From the NCBI GenBank assembly GCA_046483985.1, contig JAWOCD010000092.1:1-64000 (forward strand): DNA of 64,000 bases, read 5' to 3'. Position 1 is the stretch's first letter, and each line of letters opens with the position of its first letter. This DNA comes from Promethearchaeia archaeon. Its GTDB lineage: Archaea; Asgardarchaeota; Lokiarchaeia; Sigyniarchaeales; SOKP01. Below are positions 15,017-30,060 of the stretch, one piece after another. The notes beneath the pieces are model-generated. The model did not search any database and had not been told where the DNA came from. It was given only the letters and a program-made list of their open reading frames with translations. A program made the position numbers and the translations under genes.

Positions 15017-15345
15017 TTGAACCACTCACGCCTTAAAGCATAAGATTCGTACTTCCTAATGCGTAATACACACACTAGGCAATACGAGATGGTTCTCCAC
15101 CCCGAAATAATCGTCTCCAAGGGACGGTGAACTTGATTATAATTTTTAAGGATTTTTATGGTTCCCATTATATTTCAATCATTTCGATATCTGCATTCCC
15201 TACATTTGAATATTTTATCGTTCAGTTTTACTTTAGATTGACACTTTGGATAAGTCGATGAAGTATGGGACCTTTCCAATGCGGTTAATGCGGTTCTCGA
15301 GCTAAAATTAGGGCAAAATCCATCCTCGCCCTAAAGGACGGATTG
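15017..15345 (-). mobile_element. Internally deleted IS200/IS605 element with degraded tnpB 3' end
   Basis: Left-end hairpin region TCCGTCC-TTTA-GGGCGAGGATGGATTTTGC; remnant HTSSTYPKCQSKVKLNDKIFKCRECRYRND*NIMGTIKILKNY (Zn ribbon plus RuvC-III); right end GAAT-CTTATGC-TTTAAG-GCGTGAG-TGGT-TCAA. Confidence 0.8.
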
Positions 15346-15440: not shown

Positions 15441-16286
15441 TTAAGAATCCTTAATTTTTTTAATTTGTTGTTGGGATAGCGAGTTTTCTTTTAGATCGAC
15501 ATAATTTAGATCTCCAAACATATGAAAATTGCGTAATTCGTCGATCCTGTTATGGCTTAAATTCAGCCGTTTAAGACTTCTTAAATAAGAGATATCCCCA
15601 ACATTATTAATTTTATTATGGCTCAAATCTAATTTTATTAAATTTTCCAAGTATCCAAGATTCTCTATCGTCCTAATTTTATTAAAGCTGAGATCGAGAA
15701 TTTTTAGAGTTATAAGATTATCTAAACCTTCAATTTTGGTTATTGAATTATAAGATAAATTAAGGTGGACTATACTAAACAAATCTTCCAAATGTCTAAT
15801 CTTTTTAATTTTATTAAATCCAAGTTCTAAGGCTTCAAGTTTCCTCATATTCTCTAATCCTTCAATTTTTTTGATTTTATTCTCGTTTAGATTTACTATT
15901 TTAAGCCATCTATGCGTGGGCAATGCGGAAATCGTTTTAATCTGATTATTCTGTAGATATAATTTTTCCAAAATAGGAAGGTCGGTTAATCCTCTAATTT
16001 TTTTTATACAATTATGGTCTAAATGTAGAAGTTCCAAATTATCTAAATTTTTAAGATTTTCAATCTTTCTAATCCTATTATAATTCAAATACAAACGTTT
16101 TAAATTGCTTAGATGTGAAAGATTTTTAATATGTTTAATTTTATTTGAGCTTAAATCCAATACGACAAGGTTATCAAGGTCCTCTAATCCTTTTATCTCA
16201 AGAATGTCCTTTATGCCTCGGTGAGAAAGGTCTAATGTTCCTTCTTTTACCGGGATTTTTTTTCCCTTTAATTTAACATAACTCAT
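15441..16286 (-). CDS. Leucine-rich repeat protein (SDS22-like)
   Basis: About 11 LxxLxLxxNxIxxIxxL repeats. Confidence 0.92.
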   Translation of the reverse strand: MSYVKLKGKKIPVKEGTLDLSHRGIKDILEIKGLEDLDNLVVLDLSSNKIKHIKNLSHLSNLKRLYLNYNRIRKIENLKNLDNLELLHLDHNCIKKIRGLTDLPILEKLYLQNNQIKTISALPTHRWLKIVNLNENKIKKIEGLENMRKLEALELGFNKIKKIRHLEDLFSIVHLNLSYNSITKIEGLDNLITLKILDLSFNKIRTIENLGYLENLIKLDLSHNKINNVGDISYLRSLKRLNLSHNRIDELRNFHMFGDLNYVDLKENSLSQQQIKKIKDS

Positions 16287-24241: not shown

Positions 24242-25354
24242 ATGGTGTTTCGTATTTTTAGACCAGACTCAAAATCAGTTTGGAATAATGAAGAAATTAG
24301 AGAGCGTTTTTCTCGATACCGGAGCATTATTGATGATGAGAAAATAGCTCGTTATCTCATTGCAAAAACCGTTAAGTGCTCTTTGGAAGGGCAAGAACCT
24401 TTACCACAACTAGAAAAACAACTAAAAGAAAAATCAGCAGTAATTGAGGAACTAGTAGAAAAACCAGCAAGTAAGATTGAAAAGCGCGAAGTAGAGGAAC
24501 AAAATTTTCTTGCCCTTGCTGCAAAGATTGCCTCTCGTTATCTTGAAAATTGCATTTTCTGCGAACGACAATGTAAAGTGAACCGAATAGATGGAGAAAA
24601 AGGATTTTGCTTGATTGGAGAGGATAGTTACGTTTCCTCCAGTTTTTTACATATGGGCGAGGAAGCTCCGCTTATTCCGAGTGGCACGATCTTTTTTCAA
24701 GGATGTAATCTTGGATGCGTATTCTGTCAAAATTTTGAAATCTCCCAAGCTTGGAAAGGAAAACGAAAGCTTGAGGATATAGCCCGGAAGGTGACGGAAA
24801 AGGAATTGGCTAAATTAGGAGATAATCTTGCACAAAAAAATGCATTGAATATCAATTATGTAGGAGGAGATCCCATTCCCAACATTCATACCATTGTGGG
24901 CAGCCTGAATTACCAAACGGCTAATATCTCTCAACTATGGAATTCGAATTTTTTTCTGACGGATAAATCCTTATCACTATTAATCAATCTTATGGACTTT
25001 TGGCTTCCAGATTTTAAATACGGAAATAATGATTGTGGCGTTAAATATTCAGGGGTGAAGCGCTATTTCGATATTATCAGCCACAATCTTAAAAGAATTC
25101 ACGATGAGGGGAGCGGTGAAATTATTATTCGGCACTTAGTAATGCCTAATCATATTGAATGTTGTTCTCTACCAATCTTAGATTTCATCGCAAACGAGGT
25201 GCCCAATTGCGTGGTGAATATCATGGGACAATACCACCCGGCATATCATGCAAATAAATACTCAGAGATTAACCAGCGACCGACTTCAGAAGAAATGGTA
25301 AAAGTGAAAAATTACGCTGACAATCTTGGCATTCTCTACCGACCCGTTTCCTAA
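24242..25354 (+). CDS. pflX: Radical SAM protein, PflX family
   Basis: CIFCERQCKVNR, HMGEE..LIPSGTIFF, CNLGCVFCQN, PDFKYGN, RHLVMP, MGQY.P. Confidence 0.88.
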   Translation: MVFRIFRPDSKSVWNNEEIRERFSRYRSIIDDEKIARYLIAKTVKCSLEGQEPLPQLEKQLKEKSAVIEELVEKPASKIEKREVEEQNFLALAAKIASRYLENCIFCERQCKVNRIDGEKGFCLIGEDSYVSSSFLHMGEEAPLIPSGTIFFQGCNLGCVFCQNFEISQAWKGKRKLEDIARKVTEKELAKLGDNLAQKNALNINYVGGDPIPNIHTIVGSLNYQTANISQLWNSNFFLTDKSLSLLINLMDFWLPDFKYGNNDCGVKYSGVKRYFDIISHNLKRIHDEGSGEIIIRHLVMPNHIECCSLPILDFIANEVPNCVVNIMGQYHPAYHANKYSEINQRPTSEEMVKVKNYADNLGILYRPVS

Positions 25355-25559
25355 ATATGTCGGAGAAATGTTGGTTGGAATAAGGACTCAAAAATTAAGA
25401 TATCCCAAATGGAATTCAAAAGCTGATAATCATTATATTTATCAATGGAATTCTCAACCTAGATTCAAAAAATTATTATTTTTATTTACATTATATCTTA
25501 TATCAATTTTATTGATAATATTGATAAATATCATCTAACATTAATTGATTTGGAAGAAA

Positions 25560-26702
25560 ATGACTTTAAATTTAAAAGATATTAAAGGAATAGGAACAAA
25601 AACCATAAAAAATTTAGAAGAACACGGAATAGACTCAGTGGAGAAACTGGCGGATTTAGATCTAGAAGATCTAACGGATATTAAAGGGATAAAAAAGGAA
25701 TCAGCCAAGAAATTCCAAGAAAACGCGAAGGAATTAATAAAAGAAAAGCAAGAACAAGAAAAAGAGGCTGAACAAGAAGGAGAAGAGGAAATTGACGAAG
25801 AGAAGCAAAAAAGACTTGAAGAAGAAAGAAGAAAGTTAGAAGAGAAAAAAGAGAGGTTAAAGGAAAAACCCGTTGAGGAAGGTGATTTTATCTTAGTAAA
25901 AATCACAGGAAAGACTAGGAAAGGACAAGTGTTTCGAGTATCAAGCGAGGAGGATGCTAAGAAGGCTGGAATCTATGAGGAGAAAAAAGCTCAGCAGGGT
26001 CAATATACCCCCGAGTTTGTGATAGTTGGAAAAGAAGGGTTTGTAAATGAAGGATTAATAGAAACTATAGAAAATATGAATTATTTTGAGAAAAAATCAG
26101 TCAGAATCCCTCCAGCAAAAGCATTCGGTAAACGAGACCCAAAAAAACTGGAACGTATGGGAATACGAAAGTACCGAAGGGTAAATGACGGAAAAAGTCC
26201 AGAAATCGGACAAGAATTTGTAAAAAAGACTCAACAAGGTGCTCAAAGAGGCACAGTACGTCGAATTACCCAAGGAAAAGTTTTGATTGATTACAATCAC
26301 CCTCTTGCCGGTCAACCTATTGACTATAATATTCAAATAGTTGATAAACTCGAGGATTTTGAGGAGAAAATTAAACATGTTATCATGAATAAAAACATCC
26401 CAGAAAAAGCCATCGATGATTTTGAGATTGATTACAATGAAGAAGATAAAAGCCTCACTCTGAAGATCCCACGAATGCTCTTGTTTCAGAATCTGACCTA
26501 TGTGAAATTTGGAATTGCAAGGGACCTACAAAAACATATGAGTGATAAGATTGAAATCGTACGATTTGTCGAGGTTTATGAGAAACCGCCAGAACAACCA
26601 AACACGCAGCAAGCAGTTATGGATAAAGTGAAGCAATTTGAATCTGAAGAAGAGGAAGAACCAAAAAAGACCGAAAATGAAGAAGAAAAATCAGAAGAAT
26701 AA
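25560..26702 (+). CDS. slyD: Archaeal long-type FKBP peptidyl-prolyl isomerase with N-terminal helix-hairpin-helix domain
   Basis: IKGIG and IKGIK HhH motifs, acidic linker, IPPAKAFGKR, IDYNHPLAG. Confidence 0.85.
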   Translation: MTLNLKDIKGIGTKTIKNLEEHGIDSVEKLADLDLEDLTDIKGIKKESAKKFQENAKELIKEKQEQEKEAEQEGEEEIDEEKQKRLEEERRKLEEKKERLKEKPVEEGDFILVKITGKTRKGQVFRVSSEEDAKKAGIYEEKKAQQGQYTPEFVIVGKEGFVNEGLIETIENMNYFEKKSVRIPPAKAFGKRDPKKLERMGIRKYRRVNDGKSPEIGQEFVKKTQQGAQRGTVRRITQGKVLIDYNHPLAGQPIDYNIQIVDKLEDFEEKIKHVIMNKNIPEKAIDDFEIDYNEEDKSLTLKIPRMLLFQNLTYVKFGIARDLQKHMSDKIEIVRFVEVYEKPPEQPNTQQAVMDKVKQFESEEEEEPKKTENEEEKSEE

Positions 26703-26791
26703 ATTTCTCTTTTAACTTATCTTTTACCAAATTTTTTCTATTTCTTTACTTTAAGTCATCAAAATGGGAATAATGACCCTAAGTTTAAAAA

Positions 26792-27490
26792 TTATGTTTC
26801 TTTACCGAACTCTCCCCAGAAATCTTTAAAAACCAGAACTTTCCGTTTTTCTAACCTTGTAAGGGCTTCTGGATATTTTTTAATTTCATTGCCACGCAAT
26901 CCTAGTGCTTTTAATGATTTTAAATTTCCTATCGATTGAGGAAGAGTCGAAAGATAATTATCCGTTAGATCTAGTCTTTCGAGTGATTTTAGGTTCCCAA
27001 TTGATTTTGGAATAGTTCTAAGTTCATTAGATCTTAGATTTAGACATTTGAGTGATTTCAATTTCAATATAGGTTTTGGAAAGGCCTTAATTTTATTGCC
27101 CATAAGCATAAAAGATTTAAGTGACCTTAAGTTGGTAAACGATTCGGGAAGTGTCCTAATGCTATTATTCATTAAATCCAGTAATTCAAGTGCTGTTAGT
27201 TTGCCAATAGAACTCGGGAGTGTGGTTAGATCATTTTCCTCCAAATGGAGTTTTTCCAGGGCTTGGAGGGTGCTGATCGACTCTGGAAGAATTTTCAAGT
27301 TGCACTTAAAAAGTCCTAGAGCAGAAACCCTCTGATTCGTTACTACGAATCCCATTTTTGTATTATGCTTTATTTTCTCTACTTTGGATAGTTCTTTACC
27401 TGTTAGCATTTCCAGTTCTTTGAGCACATTTACTTCTTGCTGAGCAAGTTCTGCTCCCCGAAATGATACAATATCGATTTGTTCATTCAC
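26792..27490 (-). CDS. Leucine-rich repeat protein
   Basis: LPxSIGxLxxLxxLxLxxN repeats. Native start probably GTG 27490; the upstream 55 codons come mostly from an IS remnant. Confidence 0.85.
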   Translation of the reverse strand: MNEQIDIVSFRGAELAQQEVNVLKELEMLTGKELSKVEKIKHNTKMGFVVTNQRVSALGLFKCNLKILPESISTLQALEKLHLEENDLTTLPSSIGKLTALELLDLMNNSIRTLPESFTNLRSLKSFMLMGNKIKAFPKPILKLKSLKCLNLRSNELRTIPKSIGNLKSLERLDLTDNYLSTLPQSIGNLKSLKALGLRGNEIKKYPEALTRLEKRKVLVFKDFWGEFGKET

Positions 27491-27513
27491 TTTTATTTTC
27501 ACTCTATATATGT

Positions 27514-27738
27514 TTGAACTACCACGCCCTAAAGGGCGATGGATTCGTAATTCATCGAGAATCGCCGACACAGATAACATCGGTCTTACATCCCCTCCAA
27601 ACGCCAGCTCCACAGTCCCTGGGGTTATATGATGAACTTGGTTATCGTCCATCAATTACATTATAGTAGCGCTCCTTTATAAATATATATGCGAATCAAC
27701 ACCACCCTAAAGGAGGGATGCTTTCTCGCACTCTAGTG
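27514..27738 (-). mobile_element. Miniature IS200/IS605 derivative with apparently complete omegaRNA-like right end
   Basis: TTAC target, AAAG plus left-end hairpin (ATCCCTCC-TTTA-GGGTGGTG), TnpB C-tail TPGTVELAFGGDVRP, right end GAAT-CCATCGCCC-TTTA-GGGCGTGG-TAGT-TCAA. Confidence 0.85.
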
Positions 27739-27760
27739 GTAAATTTAATTAGGGGGTTAT

Positions 27761-29092
27761 TTAGACTTCGATTTCTTCTCGCAAATTTTCCGGAAGAGAT
27801 TCCTCGGTTATGAGAAAGAAGGGGATGGACAATATAAAGAATATTGGAACGAATGCAAAAATCCAATTAATGCCAAATGTATCGGCTATTAGTCCTCCGA
27901 GTAATGCTCCTGGCACTTGGCTGACGGTGTTAATAATATTTAACAATCCAATAAATTGGCCTTTTTTCCCGGCAGGAAGTAAATCTTGCTGCCACGAATT
28001 TAATGGGATCAAGAGACATGTGGTAGCAAACATTACTAAGATCACGGAGATGATTAGGAATGAAGTACTAACAATATTATCCGGTGTTAGGAACGGAACC
28101 ATAAAAAACCCAACACATGAGAGAAGAATGATTGGTGTGATAAATACCTTTCGGCCGTATTTATCCGAACCCTTCCCCATTAGTAAACTTCCCCCTAATA
28201 CAGCCGGAGCAATAAATATAATAGCCAAGACCAATTCAATGGTCTCTAATCCCAAACTAAACACATAATTAAAAAGATATGGAGTGATAATTCGCGTGCC
28301 TGTATTAAATATGGTCATTGCGATAATGATCTTGAAAAACTCTTTATTCTTAACTAATTCTTCATACTGAAAACTCTCCTTAATGTCTGCAACAAAACCC
28401 TTCGGCGGAGGAAGCTCGGATGGTCTCTTTTCATCAAGAAAAATAAATCCAATAACTGTGACGATAATTATCGAGAGCCCTCCGTACATCAGTACAAAAA
28501 TATGGCCTTGTTGGTTGATTATAGTCTCTCCCCCCGCCTTGCTACCAAATAACTCGTTAACGACCAGAGTAAGGGCCACTGTTGATAGGGTAGCAAAGAG
28601 AGAAAAAATTGAAACAATTGCATTTGCCCTTCCCCGACGATTGATTTTGATGAGATCGGGGATTAGTGGTCTTGTTGCTCCGTAAAACATATTGGAAAAA
28701 ATACCAATAATAATGGCATCCAAGACAAAACACCACCAATAATTGGGAGAAAAGGGGTAAACACACATTGCCGTCCCGGCAATTACACCCCCAAAAATCA
28801 TATACGGTCGTCTTCTTCCTAATTTACTTCGACAGTTATCAGAGAGGGTGCCAAAGACTAAAACAAATATCAATCCAAAAATGGCACTAACGGAAACCAT
28901 AAACCCAATATAAATGTAAGGTAGTTCTAGAACGTGATCAATATAGGTATTAAAAAACGAACCTTCATAAAACCCAAAAACTGTAGCCCCTGCACCCAAT
29001 AACCCAATCAGAATGATTTGAAACGAGATAAATCCCTTTTCGGATTCATCTCCTAAATTAGTGTCTCTTTCTTCTCCGTCAACTTCGTTCAT
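27761..29092 (-). CDS. MFS transporter (GPH/sugar-type)
   Basis: GTLSDNCRSKLGRRRPY, SDKYGRK; 12 TM segments. Confidence 0.9.
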   Translation of the reverse strand: MNEVDGEERDTNLGDESEKGFISFQIILIGLLGAGATVFGFYEGSFFNTYIDHVLELPYIYIGFMVSVSAIFGLIFVLVFGTLSDNCRSKLGRRRPYMIFGGVIAGTAMCVYPFSPNYWWCFVLDAIIIGIFSNMFYGATRPLIPDLIKINRRGRANAIVSIFSLFATLSTVALTLVVNELFGSKAGGETIINQQGHIFVLMYGGLSIIIVTVIGFIFLDEKRPSELPPPKGFVADIKESFQYEELVKNKEFFKIIIAMTIFNTGTRIITPYLFNYVFSLGLETIELVLAIIFIAPAVLGGSLLMGKGSDKYGRKVFITPIILLSCVGFFMVPFLTPDNIVSTSFLIISVILVMFATTCLLIPLNSWQQDLLPAGKKGQFIGLLNIINTVSQVPGALLGGLIADTFGINWIFAFVPIFFILSIPFFLITEESLPENLREEIEV

Positions 29093-29148
29093 AATTATTA
29101 AGATTATTAAGATTAAAAGAATTAAAAAATTTGAGATTGATAAAAAAA

Positions 29149-30060
29149 ATGAATAAATTCAAAGTGCTTTTCTCCTTTGAAAAAAGAAAGGGAATAGTTG
29201 AAGAGATTTTTCCGCTCCTTCAATCGAGGCTAAAAGATGTTGAAATCGTCTACCATAACCCTAAAGATGATGTGCTCGCTTTAAACAAGATAGGGGAGAA
29301 ATATGGAGACTTTAATCTCTTTGTTGTTAAAGTCGCCTCAGAAAGCTCTATCGATTTACTTCATTTCGCAGAATTATATAATATCCCTTGTTTGCATGAT
29401 ATAAAATCAGTGTTAATTTGTAAAAACAAGGTTGCTTTAGACCATCACATACGAAAGATAATTTCAAACCTCACTTTCGAGAATAATTTTCGGATCCCGC
29501 TTTCTTGGACGCGCTCCTTATTGGAAAAACAAAGTTTTAAAACTTGGGTTAAACAGAGATTTCCCGTGATACTTAAAAGCCATTATCAGAGTAATGTAAA
29601 TATACGATTTAATTATTTAGTGCGAAATATGCAAGAAGTAGATGATTTCTATAAGACATATAAAGAATTTATCTACTATGATGTTTATATCCAAGAATTT
29701 ATTGAATGCGATGGAATGGATAGAAAAATTTATGTGATGGGAGATGAGGTATTTGGGGTTAAAAGAAGAAATCCCATTTATATTTTTATGGAAGAAAATG
29801 TAGAATCCTTGAATGTGGAAGAAATTGAGAGAGAACAATTTATACCCTCACCTCAAATCCAAAAGCTAGCGCGAACTTTTGCAGAAAAATTGGACATTAA
29901 AATCTTTGGATTCGATCTTATTACCCCTCAAGACAAAGAAGAGTATTACCTCATAGATCTTAATGATTTTCCTGGTTTTTCGGGAATTGAAAAGAATTCC
30001 CAATATTTATTGGATTTTTTCACTAATTTCATCCGAATACAGATGGATACCGATAATTGA
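29149..30060 (+). CDS. ATP-grasp protein (RimK/ITPK1-like)
   Basis: FPVILK, IQEFIECDGMDRKIYVMGD, IFGFDLI, YYLIDLNDFPGF. Confidence 0.8.
   Translation: MNKFKVLFSFEKRKGIVEEIFPLLQSRLKDVEIVYHNPKDDVLALNKIGEKYGDFNLFVVKVASESSIDLLHFAELYNIPCLHDIKSVLICKNKVALDHHIRKIISNLTFENNFRIPLSWTRSLLEKQSFKTWVKQRFPVILKSHYQSNVNIRFNYLVRNMQEVDDFYKTYKEFIYYDVYIQEFIECDGMDRKIYVMGDEVFGVKRRNPIYIFMEENVESLNVEEIEREQFIPSPQIQKLARTFAEKLDIKIFGFDLITPQDKEEYYLIDLNDFPGFSGIEKNSQYLLDFFTNFIRIQMDTDN

Follow-up and report, generated by a model that had tools for sequence, protein, structure and literature searches.

The locus lies in a window of 64,000 nucleotides, which is the whole stretch of DNA that was analysed, from a draft genome assembly (G000) of 4.06 Mb in 128 contigs that is 97% complete. 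Read along the minus strand, the stop codon of an MFS transporter gene (27761) is followed by 18 nt, a TTAC tetranucleotide (27742–27739), an element of 225 bp, a spacer of 23 nt and a gene encoding an LRR protein. Once the element is subtracted, the spacer between the MFS and LRR genes amounts to 45 nt. The features are as follows:

27761–29092, minus strand: MFS transporter gene, upstream of the LRR gene and co-directional with it
27739–27742, minus strand: TTAC target tetranucleotide, in the TAM position directly 5' of the left end of the element
27514–27738, minus strand: gene-less IS200/IS605 miniature, PATE-like, 225 bp, with its left end at 27738 and its right end at 27514; boundaries common to about 20 copies
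27700–27720, minus strand: left-end subterminal hairpin, placed by alignment to other copies and weakened in this copy
27676–27683, minus strand: TATA box TTTATAAA, 23 nt before the ATG, kept in about 16 of 20 copies
27650–27652, minus strand: ATG opening a relic frame, present in 16 of 20 full copies
27514–27652, minus strand: omegaRNA-type scaffold of 139 nt, comprising the relic of the final ~45 codons of tnpB together with the right end
27522–27542, minus strand: right-end subterminal hairpin, followed by GGTAGTTCAA, in the tail of which lies the ancestral tnpB stop codon TAG
27491–27513, minus strand: 23-nt spacer, at once the omegaRNA guide position and the 5' leader of the LRR gene; it holds the SD-like GAGTGA and an in-frame GTG at 27502–27500
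26792–27490, minus strand: LRR gene of 232 codons with its native GTG start at 27490–27488 and Pfam matches to LRR_8 and LRR_14

The sequence-only reading had described a 225-bp element 23 nt upstream of the LRR start, and both its coordinates and its boundaries were borne out. The same was true of a TATA-like TTTATAAA and an ATG whose frame stays open through the right end into the LRR ORF. In the list of ORFs, 26792–27655 on the minus strand is free of stop codons, giving 287 aa from a TTG or 286 aa from the ATG, and 54 codons lie between the element ATG and the GTG at 27490. The description of both ends as intact held for the boundaries, with the qualification that 18 positions (8%) of this copy depart from the consensus of its subfamily. 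Ten of these fall in the left end and include changes that weaken the hairpin there. The TATA box and the ATG are identical to the consensus.

Searches of the same genome returned 43 matches to the element (98 pieces by more sensitive BLAST). About 20 copies are full-length, several dozen others are fragments, and they are 68–92% identical to the element. Alignment of the 20 full copies with their flanks showed that the two flanks of each copy are unrelated, with no target duplication. The 5' flank was TTAC in 15 copies and a one-base variant of it in the other five, and the right end was (G)TTCAA in 18 of the 20, the LRR-side copy being closed by TCAA with GGTAGTTCAA; insertion 3' of a fixed motif was thus combined with a fixed right-end tetranucleotide. 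The copies carry a left-end hairpin, a TATA box, ~140 structured nt and a right-end hairpin. Imperfect subterminal palindromes are conserved at both ends, terminal inverted repeats are lacking, and the right-end helix contains compensatory changes. Within its 225 bp, the element has no transposase ORF and only a relic frame of 46 codons. Homologous miniatures were also found in other genera of the same family of organisms, and a search of the phage collection with the element gave no match.

The ends are related to those of transposase-bearing elements. A resident autonomous IS with tnpA and a tnpB of 409 aa is present on C97 and C74 and in many near-identical copies at contig ends; both its left and right hairpins are homologous to those of the element, and it also ends in TCAA. 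Y1_Tnp matches are present in the genome, the majority of them broken by stop codons. By its sequence features the element is a non-autonomous, gene-less miniature of the PATE type derived from IS200/IS605, and its position beside the LRR gene is that of an ordinary PATE insertion. A Y1 TnpA recognising the shared hairpins and the TTAC/TCAA sites presumably mobilised it in trans, and it would have inserted 3' of TTAC within the 45-nt spacer between the co-directional MFS and LRR genes. An empty-site allele was not found: in four relatives no LRR gene comes after the MFS orthologues, the compared genomes being from other genera, and a metagenome scan with the LRR protein returned only relatives of 29–32% identity.

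The IS608/IS605 group has the same design of TTAC and TCAA sites with hairpins. TTAC and TCAA are the cleavage sites of IS608, which reportedly (work of Ton-Hoang, Barabas, Dyda and Chandler) inserts 3' of TTAC, has TCAA at its right end and imperfect subterminal hairpins at both ends, and carries tnpB towards the right end. Unlike that group, the element has neither tnpA nor tnpB and carries archaeal promoter signals. PATEs have been described from Haloquadratum walsbyi (PMC3119063) and PATE-like elements from Geobacillus stearothermophilus (PMC10055086). Like these, the element is short, lacks a transposase gene, terminal inverted repeats and a target duplication, and has subterminal palindromes of the IS605 type (PMC3119063; PMC10055086). 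In PATEs the deletion of the core can leave part of the C-terminal region of tnpB (HqIRS71), as it has here, and often an omegaRNA that would need TnpB in trans. In contrast to the PATEs of Haloquadratum and Geobacillus, the present family occurs in Asgard archaea of the Promethearchaeota and Helarchaeota, has retained a TATA box together with, probably, the start codon of tnpB in frame with the tnpB tail, which amounts to a self-promoted scaffold, and includes a copy, the LRR-side one, that happens to read into a host gene.

The resident IS also lies within the window itself. In the region 1–720, a minus-strand copy (1–616) is cut by the contig start; it has its left end at ~560–625, a tnpA that breaks off after ~60 codons, and codons 1–98 of tnpB. 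A solo right-end remnant of the resident IS family adjoins it at ~659–718. At two contig ends (C13:38223–38456 and C97:58748–59188), a miniature that extends from its left end over most of the scaffold is fused to tnpA, the first 43 tnpA codons standing inverted in place of the right-end hairpin; these joints probably reflect rearrangement between adjacent elements. Remnants such as those at C24:23857–23891, C45:44461, C107:60606 and C99:47681 represent at least three unrelated families that have the last ~35–40 nt in common (the right-end hairpin and GGTAGTTCAA) and different scaffolds upstream. Judged from these sequences, the tip of the right end seems to serve several tnpB lineages as a common TnpA substrate.

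Full-length parents of the element were sought with a pattern made from two invariant scaffold blocks, applied to one genome per prokaryote species. It matched 36 stretches, all in MAGs of Promethearchaeota or Helarchaeota and most of them miniatures of the same design. In L057, L062, L063, L067, L069 and L087, the scaffold is the 3' end of an ORF of 391–423 aa, and the scaffold of the element aligns with the last ~140 nt of these full-length tnpB elements. Coordinates of parent ORFs are L057:1108–2370, L062:1547–2815 (minus strand) and L063:1168–2424. Pfam searches with three of the ORFs found HTH_OrfB_IS605, OrfB_IS605 and a Cas12f1-like TNB domain in each, and the ORFs were therefore assigned to TnpB. 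The parent ORF covers the entire ~140-nt scaffold and the right-end hairpin and stops at the TAG in GGTAGTTCAA, only 5 nt from the transposon tip, a difference from the IS608/IS605 group. The last ~45 codons of the parent tnpB are so constrained three times over, as protein, as RNA and as a DNA hairpin recognised by TnpA.

Comparison with these parents gave the ATG of the element a probable origin. The tail of the parent protein (...AVGTTVNAFGEDVRL...MNYES...W*) and the ATG frame of the element (...TPGTVELAFGGDVRP...) are the same frame on homologous DNA until an indel in the hairpin loop. The TATA box stands 25–26 nt before the tnpB start in the parents and 23 nt before the ATG in the element, and in miniatures of other genera a TATA box precedes an ATG or the scaffold start by the same spacing. 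The start of the parents, ATG AAT AGA GCG, is matched by ATG AAT in the aligned G022 miniatures, this 5' alignment being only moderately convincing. From these correspondences, we infer that the ATG is probably the retained tnpB start codon and that TTTATAAA is probably the ancestral tnpB promoter. The element is thus best read as a tnpB with an internal in-frame deletion of ~370 codons. Such a deletion, in an element with tnpB only or with tnpA and tnpB, would have produced the miniature by keeping the left end, the TATA box of tnpB and probably its leaderless start codon, the last ~45 codons with the scaffold, and the right end. The ATG was also considered as a tnpA start and this was rejected, as tnpA of the resident IS begins MGYELDKG behind a different leader and the parents point to tnpB. 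Within its own genome, matches to the left end only or to the right end only proved to be solo ends or other remnant families, and a full tnpB with the scaffold of the element was never among them.

The scaffold is of the omegaRNA type, being encoded by the 3' end of tnpB plus the right end with the guide position immediately 3' of the right end. A hand-derived structure was evaluated by counting pairs over 35 sequences, miniatures and parents together, with slid-partner and shuffle controls. Over the 25 proposed pairs, 88% of cells paired (29–43% in the slid controls), compensatory changes occurred in 15, and none of 500 shuffles reached the score; covariation of this kind fits structure in single-stranded DNA and in RNA equally. 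On the copies alone RNAalifold gave a weak consensus, the fold of the single sequence was no better than that of shuffles (z = −0.1), and Rfam at E ≤ 1 over 25000–30000 gave only a chance match to a miRNA family. TnpB omegaRNAs, or right-end RNAs, and sense-overlapping transcripts of archaeal tnpB genes of the IS1341 type have been described (PMC4615843; PMC12558985). The RNA predicted here resembles these in being a structured RNA of ~140 nt from the 3' end of tnpB and the right end, with a guide taken from the flank; it differs in that its gene is uncoupled from tnpB and the assembly holds no cognate TnpB.

When the parent TnpBs were used as tblastn queries, the draft assembly yielded only tail fragments (aa ~350–419), one of them at a contig edge (C31:1–171). 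The sole intact TnpB in the assembly is 28% identical to the parents and has a different scaffold ahead of the right-end hairpin that both have in common. Because the assembly of 128 contigs breaks at repeats, a cognate copy of tnpB could be missing from it. The predicted guide does cover the LRR leader, as had been claimed, in that the spacer occupies the guide position; this is an automatic consequence of where the element inserted and implies no regulation. According to the homing logic of TnpB, a guide adjoining the right end aims at the rejoined empty site (PMC10055086). By this analogy, the target of the element's guide would be the empty site (TTAC plus flank) rather than the occupied locus, in which TCAA precedes the flank.

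The open frame that leaves the element has an identifiable cause. In 15 of the 20 full copies, the frame from the ATG closes before the element ends: a 1-nt indel brings an early stop, or the frame reaches a TAG in the loop of the right-end hairpin or the ancestral TAG. It reads out in the remaining five, namely the LRR-side copy and those at C18:44049, C69:11909, C87:14567 and C16:6513, all of which have 4 nt more in a hairpin loop. This indel shifts the reading into the +1 frame, so that the MNYES stretch becomes ...DELRIH... and GG TAG TT is read as GGT AGT TCA, and in this way the ancestral TAG in GGTAGTTCAA is bypassed. The other four read-out copies meet a stop codon 10–28 codons into the flank. 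Only the LRR-side copy meets a gene in frame, through a stop-free spacer whose 23 nt (2 mod 3) are in phase.

How often such a join would arise by chance was estimated from all sense TTAC sites upstream of genes in the genome, using crude longest-ORF gene calls. A stop-free in-frame join is expected at 21% of the TTAC sites 0–19 nt from a start, at 11% of those at 20–39 nt and at 4% of those at 40–59 nt. Four read-out copies stand before a co-directional gene, at distances of 23, 46, 98 and 113 nt. Over these four copies, the chance of a fusion is about 16% and ~0.17 fusions are expected; the one fusion observed is unremarkable and within chance expectation. The sequence-only reading had itself cautioned that an open frame of this length may arise by chance, and the caution applies to part of the frame: the 46 codons inside the element are inherited from tnpB and are not random, and chance enters only with the join across the 23-nt spacer. 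Most likely, then, the open frame is the vestigial frame of the TnpB tail, joined to the LRR gene by chance.

The LRR gene itself has retained the signals of an independent start. Its 232-codon frame is intact and encodes tandem LRR units (Pfam LRR_8, E = 4e-29; LRR_14, E = 2e-25) together with a conserved N-terminal FRG...LP module of the Asgard LRR_8 type that aligns with homologues. The paralogue at C10:2178 starts MNEIKEFRG, and its leader AAGGAGAAAATAAAAA, followed by ATG AAT GAA, aligns with the LRR leader TAGAGTGAAAATAAAA, followed by GTG AAT GAA. The closest short homologue (P0019; 198 aa, 50% identity) starts MVNFRG, which aligns to ...IVSFRG. The choice of the GTG at 27490 as the native start, made in the sequence-only reading, is hence backed by the paralogue and by homologues. 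An SD-like GAGTGA stands 10 nt before this GTG and, since SD-like words are enriched 4- to 15-fold before starts in this genome, it is a credible ribosome-binding site. The paralogue differs in having an ATG start and AAGGAGA as its SD-like word. Upstream of the element ATG there is nothing SD-like, and this ATG lies within a 7-bp hairpin of the scaffold. The 54-residue extension was covered by none of 299 database homologues, and the exact 286-aa product was absent from the protein collection searched.

On the strength of these sequence signals, translation of the LRR protein most likely still begins at the GTG of the gene itself (27490), behind the SD-like leader, and any long isoform would be a by-product. 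Our preferred explanation, which we hold to be probable, is a PATE miniature with a relic TnpB frame that became joined in frame by chance to an LRR gene still translated from its own GTG and free of control by TnpB. The proposal that the element supplies the N-terminus was not supported, because the gene keeps its own start and SD-like motif and has no need of an N-terminus from the element, and because no homologue carries the extension. Several points count against the preferred explanation, among them that the TATA box and ATG of the element have remained at consensus while its left end has decayed, and that the LRR gene starts with GTG where its paralogue has ATG.

The source of the LRR transcript is a separate matter. 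The 45-nt spacer before insertion suggests co-transcription of the MFS and LRR genes or a promoter in the 3' end of the MFS gene; the insertion pushed any promoter of the latter kind 225 bp further from the LRR gene. No run of five or more T occurs in the element or the spacer, nor between the ATG and the LRR gene, so both read-through from the MFS gene and read-out from the TATA box of the element are possible. The mRNA would then come from MFS read-through, from the promoter of the element, or from both. Because the TATA box lies 23 nt before the ATG, a spacing like that of tnpB in the parents, a leaderless transcript that starts near the ATG and reads into the LRR gene is plausible. The 232-codon frame is intact although the element has diverged by ~8%, so expression of the gene from some promoter has probably continued. 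The promoter of the element would be the nearest candidate for this, and a contribution of the element to LRR transcription is possible.

From here it is a short step to a more far-reaching alternative, in which the leaderless tnpB promoter and start codon were co-opted after landing, so that the LRR gene would be transcribed mainly from the element and part of the mRNA translated as a 286-aa isoform with a transposon-derived N-terminus. We regard this as unlikely. Archaea translate leaderless mRNA well. The spacing of TATA box and ATG fits such an mRNA, so a long isoform could be made, which counts against the preferred explanation. The version of co-option in which the 286-aa protein with its 54-residue element-encoded N-terminus is the main or a functional product is likewise unlikely. 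It is favoured by the spacing of the TATA box before an open frame, by the lack of T runs from the ATG to the LRR gene, by the unchanged promoter and ATG, and by some LRR homologues that bear other N-terminal domains before the same FRG...LP module, an indication that an N-terminal addition can be tolerated. Against this, one half of the extension is relic TnpB tail and the other frameshifted scaffold, no homologue matches it, its AUG would be held in the 7-bp scaffold hairpin, the native start and SD-like leader have been kept, and a single fusion lies within chance. Were it true, the locus would be a natural case of a relic TnpB element donating a promoter and a start codon to an Asgard host gene.

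The insertion might instead have cut the LRR gene off from its promoter, leaving it unexpressed and decaying, in which case the long ORF would be nothing but two adjoining open frames. Insertion 23 nt before the start would suit such an effect, as would the GTG where the paralogue has ATG; moreover, an LRR orthologue was not found in relatives or metagenomes, which makes the gene lineage-specific and possibly dispensable. A dead frame of 232 codons would, however, be expected to gain stop codons in an AT-rich genome, and here the frame is intact, with all LRR units scoring well in Pfam, despite the ~8% divergence of the element. Silencing therefore appears quite improbable as an account of the locus.

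Least credible, and in our judgement very improbable, is the reading in which the LRR mRNA doubles as an omegaRNA precursor whose binding or processing by TnpB controls LRR expression, for although the scaffold is a bona fide homologue of the tnpB 3' end with conserved structure, a transcript from the element promoter would hold scaffold, guide and LRR gene on one RNA, and omegaRNAs of PATEs have been proposed to act in trans (PMC10055086), the 97% complete assembly holds no cognate TnpB, its sole intact TnpB belongs with an unrelated scaffold upstream of the shared right-end hairpin, and the same arrangement stands beside unrelated genes at ~10 other copies, with nothing specific to the LRR gene and no enrichment beside LRR genes. 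The TnpB-dependent control put forward in the sequence-only reading is not expected because of that missing cognate TnpB, and we consider TnpB-controlled expression of the LRR gene unlikely.

A genome-wide test for enrichment of such elements next to LRR genes had been suggested as well. We catalogued 279 IS200/IS605-derived loci with ten end and remnant queries and related them to crude longest-ORF gene calls. A remnant lies within 150 bp upstream of 4.3% of all called genes and of 2 of 20 LRR genes (the gene at 26792–27490 and that at C9:20696–21682), a difference that is not significant. At C9:20696–21682, the IS200/IS605 remnant lies ~108 bp upstream of the start. The second LRR gene of the window (15441–16286, minus strand) does adjoin an IS remnant (15017–15345), as had been noted, but at its 3' end past the stop codon and not on the promoter side. 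Of the 20 full copies, 11–12 have a gene start facing their right end and 10 have one facing their left end, an orientation bias that is not significant, and this near-equal facing gives no sign that the survival of copies depends on an outward promoter. An apparent bias in the young subfamily (~9 of 11 in sense before a gene) disappeared when the whole family was counted and starts facing the left end were included; such a bias would be expected anyway from the strand-specific insertion of IS200/IS605 elements. On C64, the right end of a copy (19991) lies 9 nt before the called start of a co-directional gene for 394 aa (C64:18798–19982), for which transcription would need to begin in the element or pass across it, unless the start of the gene was mis-called.

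The apparent fusion of an omegaRNA with an mRNA is a consequence of the TnpB frame of this transposon family overlapping the entire scaffold. If their promoter is active, these elements scatter outward-reading promoters over the genome, although there is no sign of its use at the LRR gene. Gene callers are prone to merge relic frames with downstream genes and thus to place false N-termini on host proteins; every copy of the read-out subfamily that stands in sense before a gene in this genome carries that risk. Through the overlap of frame and scaffold, derivatives formed by deletion come with a promoter, a start codon and a long outward-pointing open frame, and the full-length parents, a link that is new, give the Asgard PATE family a defined origin.
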